A stretch of 32,000 nt of DNA from Candidatus Heimdallarchaeota archaeon B3_Heim (GTDB taxonomy: Archaea; Asgardarchaeota; Heimdallarchaeia; Hodarchaeales; Hodarchaeaceae), in assembly GCA_003144275.1 (NCBI GenBank), contig NJBF01000004.1:30001-62000 (forward strand), in the 5' to 3' direction. The position numbers and the translations under genes are program-made. This document shows, piece by piece, positions 13,124 to 29,210 of the stretch; position 1 is the stretch's first letter, and each line of letters opens with the position of its first letter. The notes under the pieces were generated by a model. The model was not told where the DNA came from. It did no database searches and was given only the letters and a program-made list of their open reading frames with translations.

Positions 13124-13198
13124 CTAGTGTCGTCGTCGTAGGAAGACTACCATCCCTATTAGTCCAATTAAAAGGAAGGGAAGTTCAAATCCAGGGGT
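13124..13198 (-). other. PGF-CTERM-type archaeosortase sorting signal
   Basis: T-P-G-F-E, hydrophobic helix, then RRRH and stop: the tripartite architecture of PGF-CTERM. Confidence 0.88.
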
Positions 13199-16100
13199 AT
13201 TAGTAGGAATTACATCTGGAATAGTATCTGGTATATCGATATTGATAGTGACTTTTCGGTTTGCTACAGTGAAATAGTTATCAGATATATCTTCACTGGT
13301 CAAGATTTGACTATCATACACCGTTATCGCTTCAATTTTAATTTCATAGACAAAAGAGGTCACTAAAAAGGTGGTATCCCAGAGGTAGCTGGTATCATTA
13401 AGATTCTGAGCCACAAGTACCCAGGTATCGCTTTGATTGATACTATAGTAGAGATTGAAGGTCGTATTTAATTTCCAGGGATTGTCAAGGGCCCACGAAA
13501 TTGTCCAATAATCGGAGGCAATGACTTCACCACCATTCGGACTAACTAATGTCACTTTGATATCCACAGGCACATCATACACCTCAAACATGGTTAAAGC
13601 AATTCCTACATTATTAGATGCATCAATGACCGTGATATTTAACAGGTGGAATCCAACGTCTAATGGAGGAATTAAACCATTGTATGGATCAATAGCCAAT
13701 ACGCTCCCATTCAGATATACCGTTACTGTATAATTTGCTAATTCTAAGATCTGTGTATTAAGTGCAATAGAATCAGTTTCTGGATATCGAATATCAGATA
13801 CTGGGGAGGATATAAAGATAATCGGTGCTGTTGTATCTCGTACGAAGAGAGTAATTTCCGCGAGTCCCACATTATTTGAGGAATCAGTCACTTTCACCTG
13901 TAACAAATGAGTACCCACAGGGACATTAGAGAGAATGCCACTATTGGAGATTATATTCCCATCCAGAAGAACTTCAACTGTAGCGCTACTTAAATCGGTA
14001 TACTGATAAGTATAGAGGATATTAGCACCAAATTCAAACGTAGTTTCATTTTCAGGGGTATTGATAGTAACCACAGGTTGAATGGTATCTTCTACCACTA
14101 GAATAATCTCATCGAACCCAAGATTGCTAAATTCATCAGTAGCTTCGACTGTAAGAATGTAAATACCGACTTCAAGATTTGCGAGTACTTTTAGATCACT
14201 GATTACAACACCATCTAATTTTACCTCTATAGACATAGGACTAAGATCGGTGGCTGTATACCCGTAGAAGACAAGATCGCCAAATTCAAAGAATGAATTA
14301 TTAGAGGGATCTGTGATTGAAACAACAGGTAATATCGTATCTTGCACAAAGAATGTAATTGTATCTGAACCAAGGTTGTTGTAAATGTCCGTACCTTCAA
14401 TATATAAGACATATGTACCAACGGCTAGCCCAGAAAGCAGACCTGTATCAGGTATTGGCGCACCATTTAATTGAACGATAACTGATGTTGGACTCAGATC
14501 AGATACTGTGAAAGTATAGCTGACATCGGTCCCAAACTCAAAGAAGGTAGAAGTTCCAGGGTTCGTGATTTCGACAACAGGTGCAGTTGTATCCACAAGG
14601 AAGAAGAAAGTCGTTTCTGCTGAACCAACATTCCCAAAGGCATCGGTAACTTCGATGTTGAGAGTATAGGTTCCAACAGCAAGTCCAATTAACAGTCCTG
14701 TATCTGGTATAGGAGCACTATTGAGGCTCACTACTACTGAGGTGCCACTTAAATCGAAAAATGTATATGTATAGCCGACATCAGAACCAAATTCAAAGAT
14801 AGATGCATTCACGGGGGAAGTGATGGTAACTACAGGACTTGTAGTATCCACTACATACAATATAATCTCCATAAGTCCAACATTGCTGTAAATGTCAGTA
14901 GCTTCAACAGACAGAGTATAAGTACCCACTGCAAGTCCAGAAAGCAAACCACTATCAGGAATAACGGCACTGTTGAGTTCTACTACAACTGAGGTGCCAC
15001 TTAAATCGAATACAGAATAAGTATACGAGACATCGGTTCCAAATTCGAATATAGAGGCATTAGTAGGGGATATAATTGTAACCAAAGGATTAGTTGTATC
15101 AACCACGAAGAGTGTGATTTCAGCAACTCCTACATTGTTGGATGTATCAGTGGCTTCAACGTTCAATATGTATGTACCTACTGACAGACCACTAAGAATG
15201 CCACTGTCGGGGATAGGAGCCCCATTAAGGCGTATAATTATCGTTGTACCACTTAGATCATCGACTGTGTAAGTATAGGCGACATCATCTCCGAACTCAA
15301 AGTATGAAGCATTCACTGGATCGACAATAATTACGACAGGTGCAGTTGTATCCACCACGAAGAAAGTTATTTCGTCTGAACCAACATTATTGTGTGCATC
15401 AGTCGCTTCAATATTCAATATGTAAGTACCCACTGCTAAACTTGCCAGCACTCCACTATCGGGAAGAGGAGCACCATTTAGTCTTACGACAACTGTAGTA
15501 CCACTTAAATCAGTTATAGTGTAAGCGTATGAAACATCGGATCCAAACTCGAAAATTGAGGCATTATTTGGAGAGGAGAGGGTAACAACTGGATTAATTG
15601 TATCTTGAATATAGAAGATTATTTCATCAGTTCCAACATTGCCATAAGTATCAGTTGCTTCAATAGTGAGGGTGTAAGTACCAACTGCAAGTCCAATTAA
15701 GAGGCCTGTATCAGGGAGAGGTGCACTATTGAGGCTAACAACTATTGAAATACCACTCAAATCGAAAACAGTGTAGCTATAAGAGACATCATTACCAAAT
15801 TCAAATGTAGTGCCATTTACAGGTGCAGATATAGATACAACGGGAGATGTAGTGTCAACCAAGAAAAAGAAAGTAGTTTCTGCCATGCCTACATTTCCAT
15901 ACGCATCTGTTGCTTCGATGTTGAGAGTATAGGTTCCCACTGCAAGACCACTTAACAAACCTGAATCAGGAATGGGGGCACTATTGAGGCTTACCACGAC
16001 TGTAGTGCCACTCAAATCATTAACAGTATACGTATAGCTGACATCTGAACCAAATTCAAAAATTGAGGCATTTACGGGGGAAGTTATTGTGACCACTGGA

Positions 16101-19100
16101 CTAGTAGTATCAGTTACAAAGAATGTTACCGAGTCAGATCCAACATTACTATATGTATCAGTAGCTTGAATATAAAGGGTATAGGTTCCTACTGATAATC
16201 CAGTTAATAATCCATTATCAGGAATGGGGGCGCCATTAAGCTCCAACTCTGCTGTTGTACCACTTAAGTCACTAATTGTATAAGTAAATGGTACATTTAA
16301 GCCAAATTCGTAAATTGAACTATTTGCTGGGGAAGTAATACTTACTACTGGTGCTGTTGTATCAGCAATAAAGAAAGTGATTTCATCAGAATTAAAGTTG
16401 CTGTACACATCAGTGGCTTCAACTGTCATAACATAAGTCCCTACAACGAGACTGGATAGAATTCCTGTATCTGGAACAGGAGCGCCATTTATTCTGACTA
16501 CAACTGAGGTGCCACTCAAATCCGTTACAGTATAAGTATAGGGAACGCCAGAACCAAATTCAAATGTAGAACTATTACTTGGCGAGTCAATCGTGACAAC
16601 AGGAGCTGTTGTATCCACTACAAAGAGATTAATCTCAGTAAAACCATTATTTCCATAATCGTCAACCGCTTCAACTCGTAAGACATAAGAACCCACTGCA
16701 AGACCTGAGAGCACTCCACTATCAGGGATAGGAGCTCCATTCAACTTAACCCCGATATTTGTGCCACTTAAATCAAATACTGCATAAGTATAGGGTATCT
16801 CTGAGCCAAATTCGAATATAGACGCGTTTGAAGGATCAGTAATCGTCAATGTAGGTGCAGTTGTATCCTGAATGATAATTGTTACTTCATCGCTTCCTGG
16901 ATTGCCGTAAGTATCAATAGCTTCAACTGAAAGAACGTATACACCAACGGGTAACCCTGAAAGGACTCCACTGTCAGGAATAGGGGCGCTATTCAATCTT
17001 ATTGTTACCGTCGTACCACTCAAATCATCCACAGTATAAGTATAAACGATATTTGAGCCAAATTCAACGGTTGAGGGTTCGTTTGGAGATGTAATTACAA
17101 CTACTGGTGATGTTGTATCTTGAATAAAGAACGTTATCTCATCTGATCCAAGATTACTGTATGTATCAGTGGCTTCAACTGTAAGGGTATATGTACCCAC
17201 AGCAAGACTTGAAAGTAAACCACTATCAGGAATAGGCGCTCCATTGAGTTTGACAACGATAGTAGTGCTGCTCAAATCACTTACAGTATAGGTGTAAGAC
17301 ACATCCAAACCAAATTCAAATACTGAACCATTTGCAGGCGTAGTAATTGCTACACTAGGAAAAGTCGTATCAACCATGAAGAAGGTAACTTCATCGTCTC
17401 CCACATTACTATATGTATCCGTAGCTTCTACTGTTAGAACGTATGTACCAACAGCAAGTCCAGATAATAACCCACTATCAGGAATGGGGGCGCCATTGAG
17501 CTTCACTACAACTGTCATTCCGCTCAAATCACTTACAGTATAGGTGTAAGAAACATCAGACCCGAATTCAAAGGTTGAGGCGTTTGCAGGAGAGGTGATT
17601 GTTACAACAGGGGATATTGTATCATCTAAATAAAAGAAAACAGTTTCTGCAACGCCTACATTACCATAAGAATCAGTAGCTTCAACATTAAGAGTATATG
17701 TTCCTACTGAAAGGCCTGTAAGAAGACCAGTATCTGGAATGAGGGCACCATTCAATCTTACTTCAACAGATGTGCCACTTAAATCGAATACCGTATAGGA
17801 ATAGCTAACATCATTCCCAAATTCGAACGTAGTGGCATTAACAGGAGAAGTTATCGTGACAAATGGAATTGTGGTATCCTCGACATAAAATATTATTTCA
17901 TCAGATCCCACATTGGTATAGGTATCGGTAGCCTCGACGTTTAGAATATAGGTACCTACAGCTAAACCAGAAAGCGAGCCACTATCAGGTATGGGAGCGC
18001 CGTTAAGTCTCACCACAATTGTGGTTCCACTCAAATCATCTACAGTATAGGTATAGCCAACATCCGATCCAAATTCAAATACAGTAGCATTAATAGGGGA
18101 CGTAATCACAATAACTGGGTCTGTAGTATCTTGAATGAAGAATATTATCTCATCAAAGCCCACATTACTATAGCTATCTGTTGCTTCAACATTTAGAATA
18201 TAGGTACCGACTGCAAGACTAGAAAGTAATCCTGAGTCGGGAATGGGGGCACCATTGAGTTTTACCACAACACTAGTACTACTTAAATCGTCAACAGTAT
18301 GTGTATAGCTGACATCAGAACCAAATTCGAAAGTAGTTGCATTAATGGGTGAGGAGATCGTGACAACTGGAGAAGTAGTATCAGTTATAAAGAAGACTAT
18401 TTCTTTCGACCCAATGTTGTTAAATAAATCCGTAGCTTCAACAGTTAGGGTATAAGTACCGACTGCTAGGCTAGATAGTAAACCGCTATCAGGAACTGAA
18501 GCACCATTGAGTTTGACAACGATTATAGTGCTGCTCAGATCTGTTACTGTGTAGGTATAACTGACATCATTTCCTAACTCAAATGTAGAACTATTTGATG
18601 GGGTGGTGATTATTACTAATGGCGATGTAGTATCGTGGACAGTGAATATTATCTCGTCAGATCCAACATTACTGTAGGTATCAGTAGCTTCGACATTTAA
18701 TGTATAGGTACCGACTGCTAGGCTAGACAATACTCCACTATCAGGGATCGGAGATCCATTGAGCCGAACCACAATTGTTGTTCCACTTAAATCATCAACT
18801 GTATATGTATAACTTACATCGGTTCCATATTCGTGGAATGAAGCATTTAATGGTAATGATATTGCTACAACTGGTGCAGTGCTATCCTGAACGTAGAACA
18901 CAATTTCCTCGGATCCTATATTACTATAGGAATCAGTAGCTTCAACATTTAGAAAATACGTACCAACAGCGAGTCCTGAAAGAGTACCACTATCTGGTAT
19001 TGGGGCACCATTTAATCTGATAACAACGGTGATCCCACTCAAATCAGTGACAGTATAAGTGTAAGTGAGGTCAGTTCCAAACTCAAATTGTGAAGCATTA

Positions 19101-22100
19101 GTAGGAGAAGTGATTACTACAACAGGTGAAGTTGTATCCTGGACAAAGAAAGTGATTTCATCAGAGCCAAAATTACTGTAGATATCTGTAGATTCAATTG
19201 TTAACGTATACGTTCCGACTGAAAGACCACTTAAAAGACCTGTATCAGGTATGGGAGCACTATTGAGCTTCACTACGACCGTTATACTACTTAAGTCAGA
19301 TACGGTATAGGTATAAGACACATCAGTTCCAAATTCAAAAGTAGAGGAATCGGTAGGAGTCGTGATCGTTACAACGGGTGAGGTTGTGTCTTGGACAAAG
19401 AAAGTAATTTCTTCAAAACCAACATTACTGTAGGTATCGGTTGCTTCAATTGTTAGCGTATACGTTCCGACAGCAAGCCCTGTTAATAACCCTGTATCAG
19501 GTACGGGTGTTCCATCAAGTTTAACTATAACTGAGATTCCGCTAAGATCACTAACTGTATATGTATAACTAACATCAGCACCAAATTCGAAGAATGAAGC
19601 ATTGGCAGGAGAAGTGATAGATACAACAGGGGGAATTGTATCGACTAAATAAAAGAAAACGGTTTCTGCCACTCCAACATTCCCATAAGCATCGGTAGCT
19701 TCAACAATAAGCGTGTATGTACCAACTGAAAGCCCTGAGATAATCCCTGTGTCAGCTATTGGGGCACCGTTCAGTCTTACAACAACACTAGTGCTACTTA
19801 AATCAGTGACAGTGTACGTATAATCCACATCAGTCCCAAATTCAAAGGTAGAAGCATTTACGGGTGAAGTGATTACTACCAAGGGTAAAGTTGTATCTTG
19901 GATGAAAAAGGTAATTTCGTCAGAACCAACATTACTATAACTATCAGTAGCTTCAACTGTGAGGGTGTAAGTCCCTACTGTTAACCCAACGATTAATCCA
20001 GAATCGGTAATGGGAGCTCCATTCAGTTTGACTACTAGTGTTGTACCACTCAAGTCGGATACAGTGTATGTATAAGTAACATCTGCATCAAATTCGAAAA
20101 CTGAACTATTTGTTGGGGAAGTAATAGAAACAACAGGTGTGGTCGTATCCTGGATAAAGAGGGTGAGTTCATCTGAACCAAGATTGTTAGAAGTATCAGT
20201 GGCTTCGATTGTTAAGGTATAGGTTCCAACAGTAAGGCCTGTAAGTAAGCCACTATCAGGGATAGGGGCTCCATTGAGTTTTACTACAACAGAAGTTCCA
20301 CTCAAATCACTTACAGTATATGTGTAAGACACATCAGATCCAAATTCAAAAATGGAGGCATTTGCAGGGGAAGTGATTGTTACGATTGGAGGAATGGAGT
20401 CAACAACATCGAAGACTATCTCATCAAGGCCAATATTACTGAAACTATCTGTAGCTTCAATTGTGAGGGTATACGTTCCGACTGTAAGTCCAGTTATTGA
20501 CCCACTGTCAGCAATAGGCGCTCCATTGAGTTTAACTACGATTGTTGTCCCACTCAAATCAGATACAGTATAGGTATAGGAAACAGCTATACCAAATTCA
20601 AAAATGGAGGCATTTGCAGGGGAAGTGATTGATACAACGGGTGAGATTGTATCTTGGATATAGAATACGATTTCATCAAAGCCAATATTACTGAAAGTGT
20701 CAGTTGCTTCTATAGTAAGAGTATACATTCCAACAGTAAGGCCTGTTATCAACCCACTGTCAGTAATAGGGGCACCATCAAGTTTAACCACCACTGTAGT
20801 GCCACTCAAGTCAGTAACAGTATATGAATATGAGACATCTGACCCATATTCGAATGATGAAGCATTCAGAGGAGAATCGACGGTTACAACAGGGGATACA
20901 GAGTCTTCAATAAAGAATATAACTTCATCAAAACCAACATTACTGTGAGCATCTGTAGCTTCGACTGTAAGAGTGTAGGTACCTACTGCCAGTCCAGCTA
21001 TTGACCCACTATCGGTAATAGGTGCGCCATTGAGTTTTACTATCACCGTAAGGCCACTCAAATCGGTTGTTGTGTATGTATATGCAACAGTACTTCCTAG
21101 TTCGAAATAAGTGTTATTACTGGGTGAGGTTATAGACACTATAGGTGCTGTTGAATCTACTACAGAAAAGACTATTTCATCAAACCCGAGCAGATTAAAG
21201 CCATCGTCTGCTTCTACTCGGAGTGTATATGTCCCCACAGACAAGCTGGTAAGCAGGCCTGTATCGGAAATTGGTACACCATCTAATTTTACAACAACGG
21301 ATGTAGCACTCTGATCATCAATCGAATATGTGTACGCAACATCTGTTCCCAACTCGTAATTCGAATTATTTGTGGGTGAGATTATGGTAACGACTGGGGA
21401 AACCGTATCTTGTACAAAAAATGTAATTTGATCACTATCTACATTATTGTAATCATCTATGACCTCTATGGTTAAATTATGAGTTCCTACTCCTGGGGTA
21501 CTTAATGAACCTGTATCTGCCACCGCTCCTCCATCCAATATTATGGTGGCTGTTACCCCACTCAATTCTGTCACACTATATGTATATGCGACATTGCCAC
21601 CATATTCAAATGTTGAAGCATTAACGGGTGCTGTTATTGTCACCACTGGTGCAGTCGTATCTTGGACAAAGAATACTATCTCATCTGAGCCAACATTGCT
21701 ATGTGCATCGGTAGCTTCGATATTAAGAGTATAAGTACCAACTGAAAGCCCTATGAATAAGCCTGTATCTGATACGATTATTCCATTTCGTCTTACCACG
21801 ACTGATGTACTACTTAGATCATTAACTGAGTAGGTGTATTCAACATCCGTCCCTAACTCAAATATTGATGCATTAACTGGCGTAATAATCGTGACTACAG
21901 GTGCAACTGTATCTGACACATAGAATATAATTTGATCCCACCCCACATTGCTTGAATTATCTGTGGAAACAACCGTTAGGTTATATGTTCCTGTTCCCAG
22001 GCCACTAATTATTCCTGTATCAGGAATGGGATTGCTATTTAACAGAACCTCTTCCGTTGTAGGATTTATTTCTACTACGGAATAAGTATATGTTATATCT

Positions 22101-22273
22101 ACCCCTAGCTCAAAAATTGAGCTGTCTCCAGGAGTGTTTATTGTCACCACTGGTGGGGTTGTGTCCGCTGCTTGTACCATTGGTATTGTGAGCGGAAAAT
22201 TTGCGACTACTAGTGTTACTAATAAAACTGCTAGTAAGCCTTGTTTTGATAAATATTTCATTTTTTCTAACAT
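13124..22273 (-). CDS. 3049-aa cell-surface protein: signal peptide, 34 Ig-like repeats, SPNGGE Ig-like domain, PGF-CTERM anchor
   Basis: ORF track; ATG preceded by GGGTGA; hydrophobic signal ending VQAA; DTTxPVVTITSP...TYTLxVEATDxYxNVG repeats; C-terminus TPGFELPFLLIGLIGMVVFLRRRH. Confidence 0.97.
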   Translation of the reverse strand: MLEKMKYLSKQGLLAVLLVTLVVANFPLTIPMVQAADTTPPVVTINTPGDSSIFELGVDITYTYSVVEINPTTEEVLLNSNPIPDTGIISGLGTGTYNLTVVSTDNSSNVGWDQIIFYVSDTVAPVVTIITPVNASIFELGTDVEYTYSVNDLSSTSVVVRRNGIIVSDTGLFIGLSVGTYTLNIEATDAHSNVGSDEIVFFVQDTTAPVVTITAPVNASTFEYGGNVAYTYSVTELSGVTATIILDGGAVADTGSLSTPGVGTHNLTIEVIDDYNNVDSDQITFFVQDTVSPVVTIISPTNNSNYELGTDVAYTYSIDDQSATSVVVKLDGVPISDTGLLTSLSVGTYTLRVEADDGFNLLGFDEIVFSVVDSTAPIVSITSPSNNTYFELGSTVAYTYTTTDLSGLTVIVKLNGAPITDSGSIAGLAVGTYTLTVEATDAHSNVGFDEVIFFIEDSVSPVVTVDSPLNASSFEYGSDVSYSYTVTDLSGTTVVVKLDGAPITDSGLITGLTVGMYTLTIEATDTFSNIGFDEIVFYIQDTISPVVSITSPANASIFEFGIAVSYTYTVSDLSGTTIVVKLNGAPIADSGSITGLTVGTYTLTIEATDSFSNIGLDEIVFDVVDSIPPIVTITSPANASIFEFGSDVSYTYTVSDLSGTSVVVKLNGAPIPDSGLLTGLTVGTYTLTIEATDTSNNLGSDELTLFIQDTTTPVVSITSPTNSSVFEFDADVTYTYTVSDLSGTTLVVKLNGAPITDSGLIVGLTVGTYTLTVEATDSYSNVGSDEITFFIQDTTLPLVVITSPVNASTFEFGTDVDYTYTVTDLSSTSVVVRLNGAPIADTGIISGLSVGTYTLIVEATDAYGNVGVAETVFFYLVDTIPPVVSITSPANASFFEFGADVSYTYTVSDLSGISVIVKLDGTPVPDTGLLTGLAVGTYTLTIEATDTYSNVGFEEITFFVQDTTSPVVTITTPTDSSTFEFGTDVSYTYTVSDLSSITVVVKLNSAPIPDTGLLSGLSVGTYTLTIESTDIYSNFGSDEITFFVQDTTSPVVVITSPTNASQFEFGTDLTYTYTVTDLSGITVVIRLNGAPIPDSGTLSGLAVGTYFLNVEATDSYSNIGSEEIVFYVQDSTAPVVAISLPLNASFHEYGTDVSYTYTVDDLSGTTIVVRLNGSPIPDSGVLSSLAVGTYTLNVEATDTYSNVGSDEIIFTVHDTTSPLVIITTPSNSSTFELGNDVSYTYTVTDLSSTIIVVKLNGASVPDSGLLSSLAVGTYTLTVEATDLFNNIGSKEIVFFITDTTSPVVTISSPINATTFEFGSDVSYTHTVDDLSSTSVVVKLNGAPIPDSGLLSSLAVGTYILNVEATDSYSNVGFDEIIFFIQDTTDPVIVITSPINATVFEFGSDVGYTYTVDDLSGTTIVVRLNGAPIPDSGSLSGLAVGTYILNVEATDTYTNVGSDEIIFYVEDTTIPFVTITSPVNATTFEFGNDVSYSYTVFDLSGTSVEVRLNGALIPDTGLLTGLSVGTYTLNVEATDSYGNVGVAETVFFYLDDTISPVVTITSPANASTFEFGSDVSYTYTVSDLSGMTVVVKLNGAPIPDSGLLSGLAVGTYVLTVEATDTYSNVGDDEVTFFMVDTTFPSVAITTPANGSVFEFGLDVSYTYTVSDLSSTTIVVKLNGAPIPDSGLLSSLAVGTYTLTVEATDTYSNLGSDEITFFIQDTTSPVVVITSPNEPSTVEFGSNIVYTYTVDDLSGTTVTIRLNSAPIPDSGVLSGLPVGVYVLSVEAIDTYGNPGSDEVTIIIQDTTAPTLTITDPSNASIFEFGSEIPYTYAVFDLSGTNIGVKLNGAPIPDSGVLSGLAVGSYVLRVEAVDDYGNNGFTEINLFVVDTTAPVVTIDSPSNSSTFEFGSGVPYTYTVTDLSGTSVVVRINGAPVPDTGILSSLVVGTYVMTVEATDVYSNFNSDEITFFIADTTAPVVSITSPANSSIYEFGLNVPFTYTISDLSGTTAELELNGAPIPDNGLLTGLSVGTYTLYIQATDTYSNVGSDSVTFFVTDTTSPVVTITSPVNASIFEFGSDVSYTYTVNDLSGTTVVVSLNSAPIPDSGLLSGLAVGTYTLNIEATDAYGNVGMAETTFFFLVDTTSPVVSISAPVNGTTFEFGNDVSYSYTVFDLSGISIVVSLNSAPLPDTGLLIGLAVGTYTLTIEATDTYGNVGTDEIIFYIQDTINPVVTLSSPNNASIFEFGSDVSYAYTITDLSGTTVVVRLNGAPLPDSGVLASLAVGTYILNIEATDAHNNVGSDEITFFVVDTTAPVVIIVDPVNASYFEFGDDVAYTYTVDDLSGTTIIIRLNGAPIPDSGILSGLSVGTYILNVEATDTSNNVGVAEITLFVVDTTNPLVTIISPTNASIFEFGTDVSYTYSVFDLSGTSVVVELNSAVIPDSGLLSGLAVGTYTLSVEATDIYSNVGLMEIILYVVDTTSPVVTITSPVNASIFEFGSDVGYTYTFFDLSGTSVVVSLNSAPIPDTGLLIGLAVGTYTLNIEVTDAFGNVGSAETTFFFLVDTTAPVVEITNPGTSTFFEFGTDVSYTFTVSDLSPTSVIVQLNGAPIPDTGLLSGLAVGTYVLYIEGTDIYNNLGSDTITFFVQDTILPVVSITDPSNNSFFEFGDLVFYGYTATDLSPMSIEVKLDGVVISDLKVLANLEVGIYILTVEATDEFSNLGFDEIILVVEDTIQPVVTINTPENETTFEFGANILYTYQYTDLSSATVEVLLDGNIISNSGILSNVPVGTHLLQVKVTDSSNNVGLAEITLFVRDTTAPIIFISSPVSDIRYPETDSIALNTQILELANYTVTVYLNGSVLAIDPYNGLIPPLDVGFHLLNITVIDASNNVGIALTMFEVYDVPVDIKVTLVSPNGGEVIASDYWTISWALDNPWKLNTTFNLYYSINQSDTWVLVAQNLNDTSYLWDTTFLVTSFVYEIKIEAITVYDSQILTSEDISDNYFTVANRKVTINIDIPDTIPDVIPTNTPGFELPFLLIGLIGMVVFLRRRH
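13575..22165 (-). repeat. 34 tandem ~252-nt (84-85 aa) intragenic Ig-like repeats
   Basis: Counted 34 D-[TS]-x-x-P starts from aa 37; 8590 nt / 34 = ~252.6 nt. Copies differ at synonymous sites, so they are not identical. Confidence 0.95.
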
Positions 22274-22697: not shown

Positions 22698-23606
22698 TTA
22701 AAATTTCGTTAGGAGAAACTCGACAATATCGTTAGGTGTTTTCCCAAATATATAGATGAGTGGTTCAAGCCCAACGCCTCCTGCGTCGGCAATAATTTCA
22801 ATTTCCTGAATTTCGTGTGAGGAATAGGCCTGCAAGGTTTGAATCCAGTCTTTATCTGCCTCAACAGTTAATAATACTTCCTTTTTAGGGGATATGATGT
22901 CGAGAATTATTTCAGTTCGTCGTATAGAGATCAATGAATTAAACTTAGATGATTGCTTCTTAAAATAGAGGAGGATCTGAGTTAAAGTTGCACCCTGCCC
23001 AAATTCGGGATAAGAAACGATTTGTCCCATGTCCCTCACCTTAATTATTCTTCCAGGAAAACCTGCTATATCTTTGATTTCTTGAGACCCTTCAGTTGTA
23101 CTTACAAATTGACATCCAACTTCAGGTATAACCTGAGCAAATCGCTCCCCTGAATTCACTAGTTTTACTGCTGCATCATACAACTCTCTGGTAACAGTTA
23201 ATTTATCATCAAAGATTTTTCGAGAAGTTTCAGATGGAAAGCATATCGAACAGTTTGGTAAGAAATCTATTGCTGCTGTTCGTCTATGTACTTCACATAG
23301 AGGTCCTGCCGTTCGAAAAGATTGGCAAACGCTACAGATTTCCTCCATTAATTTAACGTTTGTAATATTATCTCCAGTTACTTTCGTTATTATTTGTGAT
23401 ACGAGTTCTTTGAATGTGGGATTGCTGGTAATTGAGGTAGGGGTGCTTGAAGAAGAGCTTAGATATGAGGATATGACTGGTTGGGAAACGCCTAGAAGCG
23501 TACCGATATCTGCTTGTTTCCAACCTTTATTTGATAATTTTTGAGCTATAAGTTTTCTCAGAGGAGTTAAAAAGGTTGAAGGAACTACTTCACAAATAAA
23601 ATTCAT
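22698..23606 (-). CDS. thiR: ThiR thiamine-responsive transcriptional repressor (HTH + Cys/His motif + ThiN-like domain)
   Basis: N-terminal CEV...LRKLIAQKL..KGWKQADIGTLLGVSQPVISSYL HTH; CxxC..LCEVH..CxxC linker; ThiN-like IPEVG..DIAGFPGRI..PEFG; adjacent to thiBPQ. Confidence 0.88.
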   Translation of the reverse strand: MNFICEVVPSTFLTPLRKLIAQKLSNKGWKQADIGTLLGVSQPVISSYLSSSSSTPTSITSNPTFKELVSQIITKVTGDNITNVKLMEEICSVCQSFRTAGPLCEVHRRTAAIDFLPNCSICFPSETSRKIFDDKLTVTRELYDAAVKLVNSGERFAQVIPEVGCQFVSTTEGSQEIKDIAGFPGRIIKVRDMGQIVSYPEFGQGATLTQILLYFKKQSSKFNSLISIRRTEIILDIISPKKEVLLTVEADKDWIQTLQAYSSHEIQEIEIIADAGGVGLEPLIYIFGKTPNDIVEFLLTKF

Positions 23607-23690
23607 TTGATTTCACAAGAGGTAATGCTATTCGAGACTGGACTCATGAGATATTAAAGATTTACCTGATTTCCCTTTAATCAATACTAT

Positions 23691-23710
23691 CTCGCTATAA
23701 TTGTAGTGAG
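23691..23710 (+). promoter_or_regulatory. 20-nt imperfect palindrome/hairpin CTCGCTATAATTGTAGTGAG between thiR and the kinase gene
   Basis: 16/20 symmetric as DNA; as + strand RNA, an 8-bp stem whose two irregular pairs are both G-U. Confidence 0.45.
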
Positions 23711-24650
23711 ACAAATATCCAAGGATTCTTCATTTATGACTCTTGATTTAAACTCTATACAAGGTATTCCAAAGGACATTCTCCCTGATAAAGTTGATTC
23801 AATTCAAATTATAAAAGGAGGAATGAACAATCAGAATATTTTGCTAAATGGGTCTTATTTACTCAAAGCTTACATACAACGTGATGAGAAAAATGATCCT
23901 GTCCAATTGAGATACCTACGTGAAAAAACTGCTTTTGTGAAGTTAACGAATTTGAAGTTTATGCCCAATTTCCTTAATTCATATGAAAAGGAGAACGAAT
24001 TATACATTGCTCGAATGTGGGCTGAGGGAAGAATACTAAGTCTAACTGATTTAGACAATTATACTGATACCCTAGTAACAACTCTATCTTCTCTTCATAG
24101 GCAGCATTATACCTGTGAAGCTGATTATAACTATTTTGATGTCATTACACGATATTTACAAGAATACAGGCATCGTTTTAGGAACCAAAAATGGAATTTA
24201 CCAGACGTAATGGCGGTTTCCTCTTTCTATGATCAAAATAAAGATAAATTAGTCGAACTTGAGAAATCTCGACTCTTAACACGTATACATGGAGATTTAG
24301 TATTTTCAAATATAATTTGTTCTCATCAAAAGTGTATCTTCATTGATTGGGAGTACACTACATATGGTGATCCCCTTATAGATCTTGCTTATCTTATTAC
24401 TCAGAATTCTATTGCTAAAAAATCCGAGAGAAAATTAATCCGTCTTTATGCACATCATAACTTTTTAGAAATTGATCCTCGACGGTTATCTATATATAAA
24501 AATTTGATGAATTTAATGTCTGCACTCTGGTACTCGCTTCAAGTAATGCGTTTCAGTAACAATAAACTTACACATTCTGAATTGAACCTTTCAGGAACTC
24601 AATTTGAAGAGCTTGCGAAACAGGGGTTTTCTCAATTGAAAATTCATTAA
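23706..24650 (+). CDS. APH/choline-kinase-family phosphotransferase, probable thiamine kinase (ThiK-like); true start may be ATG 23736
   Basis: GGMNNQN P-loop-like motif, YLLK, Brenner motif HGDLVFSNI, metal motif FIDWEY..GDPLIDLA; sits between thiR and thiB; AAGGA lies 10 nt before ATG 23736. Confidence 0.8.
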   Translation: MRQISKDSSFMTLDLNSIQGIPKDILPDKVDSIQIIKGGMNNQNILLNGSYLLKAYIQRDEKNDPVQLRYLREKTAFVKLTNLKFMPNFLNSYEKENELYIARMWAEGRILSLTDLDNYTDTLVTTLSSLHRQHYTCEADYNYFDVITRYLQEYRHRFRNQKWNLPDVMAVSSFYDQNKDKLVELEKSRLLTRIHGDLVFSNIICSHQKCIFIDWEYTTYGDPLIDLAYLITQNSIAKKSERKLIRLYAHHNFLEIDPRRLSIYKNLMNLMSALWYSLQVMRFSNNKLTHSELNLSGTQFEELAKQGFSQLKIH

Positions 24651-24690
24651 TTATTGTTAGATACGAAGTCTTGGTTTTGCAAAATGCTTC

Positions 24691-24722
24691 ATAGGTCAGC
24701 TATAACAGAGACCTATATTTTT
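24691..24722 (+). terminator. Inverted repeat ATAGGTC-N12-GACCTAT followed by ATTTTT (terminator or operator)
   Basis: Perfect 7-bp arms at 24691-24697 and 24710-24716; T-tract at 24718-24722; lies between the kinase gene and thiB. Confidence 0.4.
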
Positions 24723-24743
24723 AAGAGATTAAGCAATCGGTAC

Positions 24744-24750
24744 TTTTAAA
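24744..24750 (+). promoter_or_regulatory. Candidate TATA box TTTTAAA for thiB
   Basis: Ends 28 nt before ATG 24779, a spacing that fits a near-leaderless archaeal transcript; motif match only. Confidence 0.35.
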
Positions 24751-24778
24751 GACACAGAATATATATTTAGGCGATTTT

Positions 24779-26026
24779 ATGAAAAGAAATTTGAATTCAT
24801 GTCTTTTTATTACAGCTCTAATTTTGATTTATGGTTTAAATAGAATTCCTTTCTCATCTGCGTACTCTGAGGTCGAATCACTTCAAGACACACAACTAGT
24901 AATTTATACGTACGATAGTTTACTAAATGACCCTTATTTTAACATCGAGGGGAATTTTTCCCAGGTTTCTGAACTCCCTGAGAATAATATTCAAATTACT
25001 CGATTTAGTGATGCTAATGAACTTATAGTGAGATTAGAAGCAGAGAAGAGTAATCCTATAGCAGATGTTGTAATTGGAATCGATAATACGCTAATACATT
25101 TAATAGAGGACAAAACTACTGTTTTAGAACCATATTCCCCAATTTCGATTTCTCAGATAGAAACAAATCTAATCCAAAATCTCGATCCTGAACAGTTTCT
25201 TATTCCTTACGATTATGGGATTATCAGCCTTTATTATCAAAATCAGATTATTAATTCATCTACTAATCCAGAATTAGAAAACTTGACTTTAAATAGTCTT
25301 CTCACTTCAGATCTGCTTCCAATGCTCATTGTGGAGAATCCAAAATACAGTAGTCCAGGCCTGGGATTTTTATTATGGATAATAGCTGTTTATGGGGATC
25401 CAGAAATTAACTTTGATGGACTACTTGAGAGCAATTGGCGATACTGGTGGAATGCCTCACGGAATAAAATAACAATAACAAAATCATGGGGTGACGCATT
25501 TAATATATTCTTTACCCCAGAGGAAGGGAAACCAATTATGGTATCCTATGGAACATCTCCAGCTTATAGTTATTGTCAGTGGGCTGATAACAGTACATCT
25601 GCAGTTGTTACTCAAGAAGATGATCAACAAAACGCTTGGCTTCAAATTGAGGGAATAGGCCTTGTTAAAGATGCACCTCATAAGGAAAATGCTAAGCAAT
25701 TCATTGATTGGTTTTTGAGTCCTGCCTTACAGAGTGAAATTCCAGAACATCAATGGATGTATCCAGCAAATACTGAAGTTACTCTTTCAACATGCTTTGA
25801 AGAATCAGTAATTCATCCAGATGAAGTTTATAGACTGAATGATCTTCTTTCTCCTGATCTATTAGCAAAAAATTTAGCAGACTGGATAGACCAATGGGAA
25901 CAAGTCATTGTACTGGGCTACATTGATTCTGAAGCTGATATACCCAGCTTTGAATTCTACCCAACTCTACTTGGATTGATTATCCTAGGTATTCCTGTAT
26001 TAATAAAGAAGAAAAAACGCGAATAA
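24779..26026 (+). CDS. thiB: Thiamine ABC transporter substrate-binding protein with C-terminal sorting signal
   Basis: LVIYTYDS, ADVVIGIDN, PYDYG, SSPGLGFLLW, VSYGTSPAY, LQIEG, Q..IP..QWMYPA match ThiB/TbpA motifs; C-terminus IPSFEFYPTLLGLIILGIPVLIKKKKRE. Confidence 0.92.
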   Translation: MKRNLNSCLFITALILIYGLNRIPFSSAYSEVESLQDTQLVIYTYDSLLNDPYFNIEGNFSQVSELPENNIQITRFSDANELIVRLEAEKSNPIADVVIGIDNTLIHLIEDKTTVLEPYSPISISQIETNLIQNLDPEQFLIPYDYGIISLYYQNQIINSSTNPELENLTLNSLLTSDLLPMLIVENPKYSSPGLGFLLWIIAVYGDPEINFDGLLESNWRYWWNASRNKITITKSWGDAFNIFFTPEEGKPIMVSYGTSPAYSYCQWADNSTSAVVTQEDDQQNAWLQIEGIGLVKDAPHKENAKQFIDWFLSPALQSEIPEHQWMYPANTEVTLSTCFEESVIHPDEVYRLNDLLSPDLLAKNLADWIDQWEQVIVLGYIDSEADIPSFEFYPTLLGLIILGIPVLIKKKKRE

Positions 26027-26069
26027 TCGTCAGTTCTTATCTTTTGAATGGTATCCGGTTTGATTCCTA

Positions 26070-27779
26070 ATGCGTATAAAACAGAATTCTCTCAAAACTT
26101 TGATTGTGCTTGTTATTCCTATTTCTTTTCTATTTTTCTTCTTTTTTATTCCCTTAATTAACATTTTCGCACTTGCTTTTGGAATATTGGATGAGGGGAC
26201 AATATTTACATTATCACCTTTATTAGATGTTTTAACTCATCCATTAAACAGATATTTCCTAATCTGGGATATACAACAGGCACTCCTTACCACTTTTCTT
26301 TGTTTATTGATTGGAATTCCTGGATCATATATTTTAGCTCACTATAAGTTTCCCTTTAGGAATACAATTCGAAATCTTTTAACAATTCCATTCATCCTTC
26401 CTCCAATTGTAGTTTTAATGGGATTTATTTCTGTTTTTGGTCATGGGAGTCTAATTAATAATTTCTGGAAAGATTTAACAGGATTTCGACTAATAGACAT
26501 TTACAATACCAATGAAGGTATTATTCTAGCTCACATATTCTATAATATTCCAGTAATTATCCGGATTACTGAGATAGGATGGAGGAATGTAAACCCAGAG
26601 CTAATTGCAGTTGCTAAGAGTCTAAAAGCTTCAAATTGGAGGATATTCAGAAAAATTCAATTTCCTCAATTATTTCCGATTTTAGCTGCTGCTTCTTTAC
26701 TTGTGTTCATCTATTCATTCAATAGTTTTGCAATTGTGCTTGTATTGGGAGGAGTAAAGTTTCAAACGTTAGAAGTAAGGATTTTCGACTATTTTTGGGC
26801 TCGTTTTGATTATAATGCTGCTGCAGCACTCACAATGATCCAACTATTCATTAATACCCTTGTTATTTTCCTTTATCTTTATTTTTCGAATAAATATGAA
26901 ATCCCTACTGAAAGACTTGCTTGGAAAATCGAAAATTCATTGTTTCATCGACCAATTAATCTTAAATCTGTGCTTAGAACGATTTTTGTTGGATTATATT
27001 TTGCATTTGTGGGAATTATATGTGTACTTCCAATCGTTGGGGTCTTTTTTGCTTCATTTACTTCTTCTGATAATGCATTTACACTACTCAACTATTCTAA
27101 ATTGCTTGATCGCGATATTAGTACCTTTATAGGATTACCTCCACATTCTATGATAGCTAATAGTTTGTTATTTGGTTTAGGAGTTATTCTCATCGCCCCT
27201 ATTCTTGCACTCTTACTTAATTATGGATTAAATTATGAAACGACAAATAAAGGAAGACCAAAGATAACTTTATTTCGATCTTTTAGTGGAATTATAGTAA
27301 TTTTACCATTAACTGTCTCTTCTATCACACTTGCTTTTTCTCTATTTAGTATATATCGAGATACACCAGTTTATGAGAATATTGCCATAGTTATAATCAT
27401 TGCTCAAACATTGATTGCTTTTCCATTTGCAAATCGTATTATTGCAGCAACCCGATCAAATATTGATCAAACCATTATAAACGTTGCTCGAAGTCTTGGG
27501 GTATCACGATTAGGAGCATTTTTTAAAATAGAGCTTCCTTTATTACTACCTGGAATTGTTATCGCAGGATTATTTAGCTTTGCAATCTCAATTGGAGAAT
27601 TTGGAGCGACTTACTTTCTATCAAAGACGAATTTTGCCACGATCCCCGTAGGAATTTACAGATTAGTCGCTACTAGAAATATCGGACCCGCAGCAGCTTT
27701 TGCATCCCTCCTCGTAATAATCACGGTTGGAAGCTTCATGATTATTGAAAGAGTAGGAAAGGTTGATTTCAGGATATAA
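26070..27779 (+). CDS. thiP: Thiamine ABC transporter permease (duplicated permease domains)
   Basis: About 12 hydrophobic segments; two EAA-like loops (AVAKSLKAS..F..I.FP and NVARSLGVS..F..IELP); LAHIFYNIP; follows thiB. Confidence 0.9.
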   Translation: MRIKQNSLKTLIVLVIPISFLFFFFFIPLINIFALAFGILDEGTIFTLSPLLDVLTHPLNRYFLIWDIQQALLTTFLCLLIGIPGSYILAHYKFPFRNTIRNLLTIPFILPPIVVLMGFISVFGHGSLINNFWKDLTGFRLIDIYNTNEGIILAHIFYNIPVIIRITEIGWRNVNPELIAVAKSLKASNWRIFRKIQFPQLFPILAAASLLVFIYSFNSFAIVLVLGGVKFQTLEVRIFDYFWARFDYNAAAALTMIQLFINTLVIFLYLYFSNKYEIPTERLAWKIENSLFHRPINLKSVLRTIFVGLYFAFVGIICVLPIVGVFFASFTSSDNAFTLLNYSKLLDRDISTFIGLPPHSMIANSLLFGLGVILIAPILALLLNYGLNYETTNKGRPKITLFRSFSGIIVILPLTVSSITLAFSLFSIYRDTPVYENIAIVIIIAQTLIAFPFANRIIAATRSNIDQTIINVARSLGVSRLGAFFKIELPLLLPGIVIAGLFSFAISIGEFGATYFLSKTNFATIPVGIYRLVATRNIGPAAAFASLLVIITVGSFMIIERVGKVDFRI

Positions 27780-27807
27780 GTGGTTAAATGATAAATGGTG
27801 ATTAAGG

Positions 27808-28914
27808 ATGCCTTATTTTGAAGTAAACAACCTCTATTATAGATATGAAGAACAATGGGTTCTTGAAGACATTTCGTTTAAAGGAGAAGAAGGAGAATTA
27901 ATCGCAATAGTAGGGCCATCTGGTTGTGGCAAAACAACGATACTTAAAACCATTGTAGGTATCTTATCTCCTCAACAAGGCTCCATCATCATTAACTCTA
28001 ATGATATTACAGATAAACCGATTGAAACGAGAAATATTGGTTATGTTCCTCAGAATCAGGGCCTTTTTCCACATCTAACTGTGTTTGAGAATATTGCTTT
28101 TGGACTTAAGGCTCAAAAGTGGAAAAAGGATGATATTGAAAAGCATATACAAGAATTGGCAAAACTAAGTGGATTAGAAGACATCTTGGCTCGAAAACCT
28201 CATGAGATAAGTGGTGGCCAACAACAAAGAGTCGCATTATTACGAGCTCTGGCTCCATTTCCTAAATTACTTCTACTAGATGAACCGCTAAGTAATATCG
28301 ATACTAATTTACGAGAACAATTAGCGATTTATATCCGAAGAATTCAAGAAGAGTCGCAAATAACAACATTATTTGTTACACATGATTTAGAAGAAGCGAA
28401 AATGCTCGCTGATAAACTGGTAGTAGTAAATCAGGGAAAAGTACTACAAATAGGTTCACCAATAGAAGTAAATCTCAATCCAATATCTATTGAAGTAGCA
28501 ACAACACTAGGTTTGAAGAATTTATATAAAACTATTTCTATTGTTAAAAATATTGAAAAACGGTCAATTCGTTTAATAAGTGAAGTTGGAAATATTGAAA
28601 TTTCGAATCAAGACCTTTATGATTCCAATAGAGAAGTAAAAGGTGTTTATATTAGCCCTACAATGATAACTATATCCCGTGAGCCTTTTAGTACTGAGAA
28701 TTCATTTAAAGGAAAAGTATTTGCAGTTATACCTGAACCAATGGTAAGGCAAGTGACGTTATTAGTATCAATACCATTAAATTCTGATAAATTAAATAAA
28801 AATGATTATAAAGTTTTAAGAGTCCAAATACCTAGTTCTAAATGTGATTATCAGATCTCGGAAATTGTCTATGTTAATATTCTACAGGAAGGAATTAAAC
28901 TTTATGAATCATAA
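27808..28914 (+). CDS. thiQ: ABC transporter ATPase of the thiamine uptake system
   Basis: Walker A GPSGCGKTT, signature ISGGQQQR, Walker B LLLLDEP, H-loop VTHD; C-terminal TOBE-like extension; operon context. Confidence 0.88.
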   Translation: MPYFEVNNLYYRYEEQWVLEDISFKGEEGELIAIVGPSGCGKTTILKTIVGILSPQQGSIIINSNDITDKPIETRNIGYVPQNQGLFPHLTVFENIAFGLKAQKWKKDDIEKHIQELAKLSGLEDILARKPHEISGGQQQRVALLRALAPFPKLLLLDEPLSNIDTNLREQLAIYIRRIQEESQITTLFVTHDLEEAKMLADKLVVVNQGKVLQIGSPIEVNLNPISIEVATTLGLKNLYKTISIVKNIEKRSIRLISEVGNIEISNQDLYDSNREVKGVYISPTMITISREPFSTENSFKGKVFAVIPEPMVRQVTLLVSIPLNSDKLNKNDYKVLRVQIPSSKCDYQISEIVYVNILQEGIKLYES

Positions 28915-28961: not shown

Positions 28962-29210
28962 TTAAGAATTATCCTCTAACGATTCACTAATTATTAGTGT
29001 TATTGATTTGGTTACACCAGGTACTTTACGAATTTCTTTCGTGACAAAACTCCCTAGTGATTTGACATTTTTTGCTTTGACCTCAATAAACAAATCATAT
29101 TCACCGAAAGTTATTTTACAGTTCTTAATTTCATCTAACTCAAGAACTTGCTTTTTAACAGTCTGTTCAGTTCCAGGCATAACACATAATAATATGATAG
29201 CATCTACCAT
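28962..29210 (-). CDS. Stand-alone Lrp/AsnC ligand-binding (RAM) domain protein
   Basis: 82 aa, AIILL.V.PG...V...L..I..C..TFGEYDL..V...L..FV...IR.VPGV..S.TLI; no HTH; AAGGAG upstream. Confidence 0.88.
   Translation of the reverse strand: MVDAIILLCVMPGTEQTVKKQVLELDEIKNCKITFGEYDLFIEVKAKNVKSLGSFVTKEIRKVPGVTKSITLIISESLEDNS

Follow-up and report, generated by a model that had tools for sequence, protein, structure and literature searches.

The described enzyme against which the gene reported here has to be measured is ThiK of Escherichia coli (YcfN, EC 2.7.1.89), a thiamine kinase with an aminoglycoside phosphotransferase (APH)/choline-kinase-like fold, whose gene adjoins neither thiBPQ nor a regulator. 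Thiamine pyrophosphokinase (TPK) of B. subtilis and eukaryotes provides an alternative activation of imported thiamine, but it has an unrelated fold and forms thiamine diphosphate (ThDP) in one step. The effectors of the regulator ThiR are reportedly thiamine phosphates. No relevant account of a thiamine kinase from archaea, or from Asgard archaea in particular, came up in literature searches. Here we describe a kinase gene of the ThiK superfamily (23736-24650, plus strand; 304 residues) in Candidatus Heimdallarchaeota archaeon B3_Heim, family Hodarchaeaceae, which lies between a thiR-type regulator and a thiBPQ-type importer operon. It was found in a stretch of 32 000 nucleotides (contig NJBF01000004.1, positions 30 001 to 62 000), which is referred to as the window throughout and whose first letter is position 1. 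We consider it probable that the locus serves a B1-auxotrophic Hodarchaeales archaeon as a module for taking up and activating thiamine, and that the kinase is a thiamine kinase of a ThiK-like but distinct, lineage-specific family. The thiamine-kinase reading is based on genome context, on a gap in the pathway and on an intact catalytic apparatus.

A kinase gene between thiR and thiB

The original prediction had listed five genes, thiR, the kinase and thiBPQ, with the kinase between thiR and thiB, and had read the cluster as a sign of dependence on external vitamin B1. Open reading frames (ORFs) and domain searches confirmed the five genes and their order, and a census of the host genome (3.95 Mb in 103 contigs, 94% complete) that took in thiC, thi4 and thiL bore out the dependence, with the profile of a full auxotroph. 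No gene scored above the family cut-off for ThiC, Thi4, ThiG, ThiD, ThiM, ThiE or TPK, the Thi4 search returning N-terminal Rossmann-fragment matches only, while ThiL was present elsewhere than at the locus (197 bits, cut-off 184). The sole gene with a ThiN domain is thiR itself, and no catalytic ThiN was found. The host must need ThDP, since its genome holds 11 TPP_enzyme_C matches, and where no canonical enzyme but ThiL is on hand, unphosphorylated thiamine would reach ThDP only via a kinase that converts thiamine to thiamine monophosphate (ThMP). ThiL in the genome and no pyrophosphokinase found make up the context of a ThiK-type pathway. On this gene content, the conversion of thiamine to ThMP is the one apparent missing step in the host, and the sole candidate for it sits between a thiamine regulator and an importer.

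The census was extended to 83 genomes of the class Heimdallarchaeia. ThiC was found in none of them, having been detected in 13 of 14 control genomes, whereas ThiL was found in 76 and ThiB-type binding proteins in 75 of the 83. No TPK exceeded the cut-off anywhere in the class; sub-threshold TPK_catalytic matches of 20-27 bits to ORFs of about 250 residues occurred in families other than that of the window, which gave no match whatever. As judged from these searches, a need for thiamine, or for its pyrimidine, from outside seems to be uniform across the class.

The kinase could start at a GTG at 23706 or, more likely, at an ATG at 23736, which we take as the real start because every homologue begins there. 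The protein passes the Pfam cut-offs both for APH (PF01636, 53.9 bits) and, marginally, for Choline_kinase (PF01633, 31.3 bits against 29). The motifs of the kinase fold are all present and are invariant in 27 family members, namely the ATP-lysine K44, the Brenner motif H185-G-D187-x4-N192 (HxDxxxxN) and the metal-binding D204-W-E206-Y207 (DxE). An AF2 model was obtained with a predicted local distance difference test score (pLDDT) of 90.9, and its best Foldseek matches were the choline/ethanolamine-kinase family member 3dxq, LicA (4r7b) and APH(2'') enzymes, with template modelling (TM) scores of about 0.7. The model and the motifs mark the protein as a putative kinase of small molecules that has the protein-kinase-like fold and should be competent in catalysis. 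Its family is sharply set off: when 1.84 billion representatives were searched exhaustively, full-length members all reached 164 bits or more and the scores then fell to 59 or below, and a word-index search of 5.8 billion proteins gave only about 43 members, all the named ones of which are from Hodarchaeales or Heimdall. Where automated annotation calls these proteins 'aminoglycoside phosphotransferase' or 'thiamine kinase-like', the label signifies superfamily similarity only, and the functional case comes from genome context.

An identity as an aminoglycoside-resistance enzyme was considered and rejected on scores of 21.9 bits for APH_3p (cut-off 205) and 15.4 for APH_6 (cut-off 325). The genome also encodes four further APH-fold paralogues (C50:15257-15859, C50:17205-17615, C76:9777-10418 and C23:86571-86933), two of which lie 2 kb apart on the same contig (C50).

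The five-gene arrangement is not due to chance, because it recurs in all seven contigs that carry homologues and across the family to which the window belongs in GTDB. In these 7/7 contigs the kinase stands divergent to thiR and together with the ABC (ATP-binding cassette) genes, down to 37% identity, and the linkage is kept despite different flanks in a complete genome (L004), an inserted TnpB gene (L005) and an inverted ABC operon (L009). Of the 83 class genomes, 22 belong to the GTDB family of the window, and the kinase family is present in 19 of these; it was found in none of the other 61. In 16 of the 17 genomes in which both were found, no more than about 2.3 kb separates the kinase from a ThiN gene; thiB is about 4 kb away or less in 17 of 19, the kinase standing directly upstream of it in 12 and convergent with an inverted operon in 5. 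One genome, G059, had seemed to offer thiB without the kinase, but was dismissed as a counterexample, its contig ending inside thiP in the inverted-operon arrangement. The neighbourhood is thus conserved over deep divergence and through rearrangements. The original prediction would have been undermined by orthologues unlinked to thiamine genes; within the family linkage is the rule, as counted above, and it is the nearest outgroup proteins, P0059 and P0066, that adjoin a Hef-type helicase and have no thiamine genes in their vicinity.

In some relatives an IS605-type TnpB gene (HTH_OrfB_IS605 with a Cas12f1-like TNB; L005:6368-7672, minus strand) lies between thiR and the kinase. Gaps of about 2.2 kb separate the two genes in G057, G058 and G065, and the TnpB insertion leaves the adjacency of the kinase to thiB intact.

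Relation to ThiK, LicA and other thiBPQ-linked kinases

The kinase has in common with ThiK the APH/choline-kinase-like fold, the motifs HxDxxxxN and IDWEY and a predicted role ahead of ThiL in a host that imports thiamine via a ThiBPQ-type system, and it resembles ThiK in a helix motif at the C-terminus. It differs in that it is embedded between thiR and thiB, and in that its host is archaeal and has a protein regulator in place of a TPP (thiamine pyrophosphate) riboswitch. The hidden Markov model (HMM) built from the kinase family scored E. coli ThiK (K-12 record) at 16.4 bits, the last of 190 proteins, and more than 130 anonymous APH proteins are closer to the kinase than ThiK is. Profile alignment with hhalign matched the kinase to E. 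coli ThiK over the C-lobe only (E 3e-5), compared with 1e-14 to 1e-24 for the anonymous APH relatives. The term 'ThiK-like', as used in the original prediction, can be retained at the level of the superfamily and has to be dropped at the level of the family, where the ThiK equivalog models failed and E. coli ThiK is more distant than anonymous APH proteins. On sequence, the kinase is best described as a putative functional analogue of E. coli ThiK that belongs to the same superfamily and was separately recruited, and not as its orthologue.

Among solved structures, the choline kinase LicA of Streptococcus pneumoniae (PDB 4r77, 4r7b) comes closest to the kinase in profile searches (E 9e-15), and it is also one of the leading matches by structure (TM-score about 0.72). 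The choline site of LicA is formed by Tyr197, Trp251, Trp254, Tyr268, Val178, Glu213 and Thr29 (PMC4364537). The catalytic Asp, Asn, Asp and Glu, along with the equivalents of Tyr197, Trp254 and Val178, are kept in the kinase family. In the profile alignment, however, Trp251 is replaced by Ser262, Glu213 by Gln223 and Thr29 by Asn31, while Tyr268 falls outside the alignment, and the kinase does not reproduce the LicA choline site. No lic genes lie near the kinase, and its context is that of thiamine, not of phosphocholine. The equivalent of Trp251 is also missing in E. coli ThiK. These replacements suggest that the pocket is wider than in a choline kinase and less closely fitted to small quaternary amines.

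Kinase genes of the same superfamily are linked to thiBPQ in other families of the class as well. In family f4 a different choline-kinase-like gene, encoding 271 residues, is present in 26 of 31 genomes and in no other family. The gene order there is thiR-thiB-thiP-thiQ-kinase, with the kinase (L048:5286-6101, plus strand) overlapping the thiQ stop by 4 nt. This protein resembles the kinase of the window in its APH/choline-kinase fold, the core of which has HGDL..N and IDWE, in its place in a thiR-thiBPQ cluster of a genome without ThiC, and in its proposed role. It differs in its position after thiQ, not between thiR and thiB, and in sequence, as the HMM of the window's kinase family (A1) gave no match and hhalign yielded 23% identity (E 3e-9); it is absent in family f1. 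A third APH gene, of 349 residues (L052:1571-2620, plus strand), is present in 12 of 12 genomes of family f7 and stands directly upstream of thiB in 10 of them, and one genome of family f2 has a weak-APH ORF upstream of thiB (L051:497-1471, plus strand). The three thiBPQ-linked kinases are not each other's closest relatives: hhalign gave E-values of 3e-9 and 7e-4 among them, while values of 1e-14 to 1e-24 were obtained with anonymous APH proteins. A kinase would thus seem to have become associated with thiBPQ on several occasions. A need of the importer for a kinase as partner would account for such repetition, which seems difficult to understand otherwise.

Family f5 has an ORF of 328-331 residues, without a Pfam match, which is translationally coupled after thiQ in a divergent thiR/thiBPQ arrangement (L050:1962-2957, minus strand; L054:6001-6987, plus strand). 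Only three homologues were found among 5.8 billion proteins, and its predicted structure was unusable (pLDDT 35.6). It may be a further candidate for a thiamine-activating enzyme.

Regulator, candidate operator and importer

The regulator gene (22698-23606, minus strand; 302 residues) encodes a ThiN domain at residues 145-298 (PF10120, 98.8 bits, cut-off 25) and a helix-turn-helix (HTH) at about residues 16-56, for which HTH_3 gave 17 bits, below its cut-off. An N-terminal DNA-binding part followed by a ThiN-like C-terminus is the architecture of ThiR. The ThiN domain aligns to that of P. furiosus ThiDN (2pb9), the His of whose 'YHLGD' aligns with an Asp in the window's protein, and neither ThiD nor ThiM was found over cut-off in the genome to feed a ThiN thiamine-phosphate synthase. 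Invariant in ThiR across the class (alignment A2) are Cys5 and, between HTH and ThiN, C91-x2-C94, C104-x2-H107 and C119-x2-C122. This Cys/His-rich linker is probably a metal site, of the zinc or iron-sulfur type; we know of no description of such a site for ThiR.

The kinase stop and the thiB start are separated by a 128-bp spacer which holds the thiB promoter with a candidate ThiR operator (24690-24725, plus strand). This consists of a palindrome, CATAG-N5-CTATA (24690-24704), which is the window's copy of a conserved TATAG-N5-CTATA box, of a third CTATA (24713-24717) 7-8 nt beyond the palindrome, and of a TATA-like T-rich box (24714-24725) into which the third CTATA runs, all on the plus strand. 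The TATAG-N5-CTATA box is kept upstream of thiB in 13 related loci. It follows thiB when the operon is inverted, and is thus part of the thiB promoter and not a terminator of the kinase. A genome scan with a position weight matrix scored the box at the thiB promoter at 44.3 and the next match at 17.8, with no further copies of the candidate operator, at thiL for example, and exact-pattern scans of the genome gave few, unrelated matches. The same box architecture is present at thiB or thiR promoters of families f2, f4 and f7. With thiR linked to thiamine genes that carry a palindrome of this kind, the box suggests itself as the candidate operator of ThiR, and control of import by ThiR is plausible.

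The first gene of the operon (24779-26026, plus strand) encodes a binding protein that TIGR01254, the model of the thiamine-binding subfamily, recognises at 175.5 bits (cut-off 93.4). Its best solved relative is E. coli TbpA (2qry, E 3e-31; the next at 5e-8), and it remains below the thiB equivalog (114 against 317). It is followed by a ThiP-type fused double permease (26070-27779, plus strand; 569 residues), which has two BPD_transp_1 stretches as in the architecture of ThiP and aligns end to end with ThiP models at up to 154 bits, below their cut-offs of 395-984. The ABC ATPase in the thiQ position (27808-28914, plus strand; 368 residues; ABC_tran 134 bits) is longer than ThiQ, with an extra C-terminal part, and scores below the ThiQ equivalog (175 against 245), its best models being of the PhnT2, WtpC and PotA types. 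The proposal of a thiBPQ importer is thus supported by the TIGR01254 and TbpA matches and by the ThiP-like double permease, and falls short at the missed equivalog cut-offs for ThiB and ThiQ. The tail of the binding protein (25943-26026, plus strand) is hydrophobic and resembles a membrane anchor, with a sub-threshold match to Heimdall-CTERM (19.1 against 24 bits), which suggests that the protein may be anchored by a lineage-specific sorting system rather than by a lipobox.

An ORF of 3049 residues (13124-22273, minus strand) comes right after thiR on the minus strand, and giant Ig-repeat-type proteins of 1322 to more than 8800 residues occupy the same position in most related loci. On the other side, adjoining the ABC operon, lies a gene for an 82-residue stand-alone AsnC/Lrp ligand-binding (RAM) domain without HTH (28962-29210, minus strand). 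Six of seven related contigs have this gene beside the operon, and because it remains next to thiB on inversion of the operon it may encode a small-molecule-binding partner. Close homologues of the window's proteins carry Hodarchaeales or Heimdallarchaeota labels. No more than 0.18 of the stretch was present in sequencing runs from marine sediment and cold seeps, with no good RNA run.

Proposed function and alternative explanations

By homology, thiamine would be captured by the surface-anchored ThiB-type protein and imported by the ThiP-type permease and the ABC ATPase. The kinase would then phosphorylate the hydroxyethyl group of thiamine with ATP, as its context, the pathway gap and its catalytic apparatus suggest, and ThiL, whose gene is present, would convert the resulting ThMP to ThDP. 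When thiamine phosphates are plentiful, ThiR would probably bind the thiB-promoter box and stop import, as characterised ThiR proteins are said to do.

Several findings weigh against this scheme. The kinase misses both ThiK equivalogs (54.4 against 299.45 bits for TIGR02721 and 29.1 against 206 for NF007620), and it scores 59 bits on the model of an unrelated kinase, GntI, as good as on that of ThiK. A ThiR box in the divergent spacer between thiR and the kinase (23607-23735) was sought and rejected, as no TATAG-N5-CTATA with up to one mismatch was found in this spacer in 19 genomes and no 7-mer common to the spacer and the thiB promoter recurs across genomes. The box being absent from the kinase promoter, control of the kinase by ThiR can only be presumed. 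The closed loop of import, phosphorylation and sensing set out in the original prediction is therefore backed by a candidate operator on its thiB side and by no box on its kinase side. The counted genomes are relatives, and the counts therefore overstate their independence. In at least one genome, the sister genome G046 of family f6, a divergent thiR/thiBPQ pair and a ThiL-like gene occur without an adjacent kinase. Bacterial ThiBPQ, moreover, carries thiamine and thiamine pyrophosphate too (PMC3020362), and import of ThMP or ThDP together with ThiL could thus make a thiamine kinase dispensable, which may be the situation in the f6 genome.

Were the kinase to act on another small alcohol, whether imported by the ABC system or not, such as choline, ethanolamine, hydroxyethylthiazole or a thiamine antimetabolite, its adjacency to thiR and thiB would serve some other need. 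The Choline_kinase match, the close profile match to LicA and the fact that ThiK is no nearer to the family than other APH proteins are would all fit such a substrate. However, three of the choline-site residues of LicA are replaced, the ThiD, ThiM, ThiE or catalytic ThiN that would use a phosphorylated thiazole or pyrimidine were not found over cut-off in the genome, the binding protein is TbpA-like, and thiBPQ is linked to a different kinase in each of three lineages; we therefore regard this explanation as unlikely. It could also be envisaged that thiamine enters the cell already phosphorylated and that ThiL completes the cofactor, the window's APH-fold protein then being a regulatory protein kinase or ATPase acting on ThiR or on the transporter. 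The best matches are to small-molecule kinases throughout, and neither the DWEY motif of choline-kinase type nor an aromatic residue of the pocket varies in the family, which makes such a role very improbable even though the APH fold is the protein-kinase fold, weak RIO1 and Bud32 matches were obtained, bacterial ThiBPQ can carry phosphorylated thiamine and the sister genome does without an adjacent kinase. To our knowledge there is no precedent for regulation of ThiR by a protein kinase.

The adjacency might, finally, be inherited synteny without functional meaning in one closely related group of genomes, given that all carriers belong to one GTDB family and that the flanks (the giant surface protein, the AsnC-domain gene and a helicase) are also syntenic in many loci. 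As mentioned above, however, the link of the kinase to thiR and thiB has outlasted different flanks (L004), a transposon (L005) and inversion of the operon (L009 and five genomes), and analogous links of a kinase to thiBPQ occur in other families, so that we give this explanation hardly any credence. A thiamine kinase in an uptake-and-activation module remains the reading we prefer.

A wider proposal, which we would put at even chances, is that Heimdallarchaeia, devoid of B1 pyrimidine synthesis, have on at least three separate occasions recruited unrelated APH/choline-kinase branches into thiBPQ operons as thiamine kinases, the Hodarchaeaceae-specific family of the window being one of them. 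ThMP would then be both the substrate of ThiL and the signal for ThiR, in a protein-based counterpart of the ThiK/TPP-riboswitch logic. In the literature searched, salvage from thiamine through ThMP to ThDP has been without an assigned first enzyme in these archaea, and the three kinase families are testable candidates for it. The closest archaeal relatives of eukaryotes would, on this account, be obligate consumers of external vitamin B1, a dependence which bears on the syntrophic lifestyle of Heimdallarchaeia and on attempts at their cultivation.

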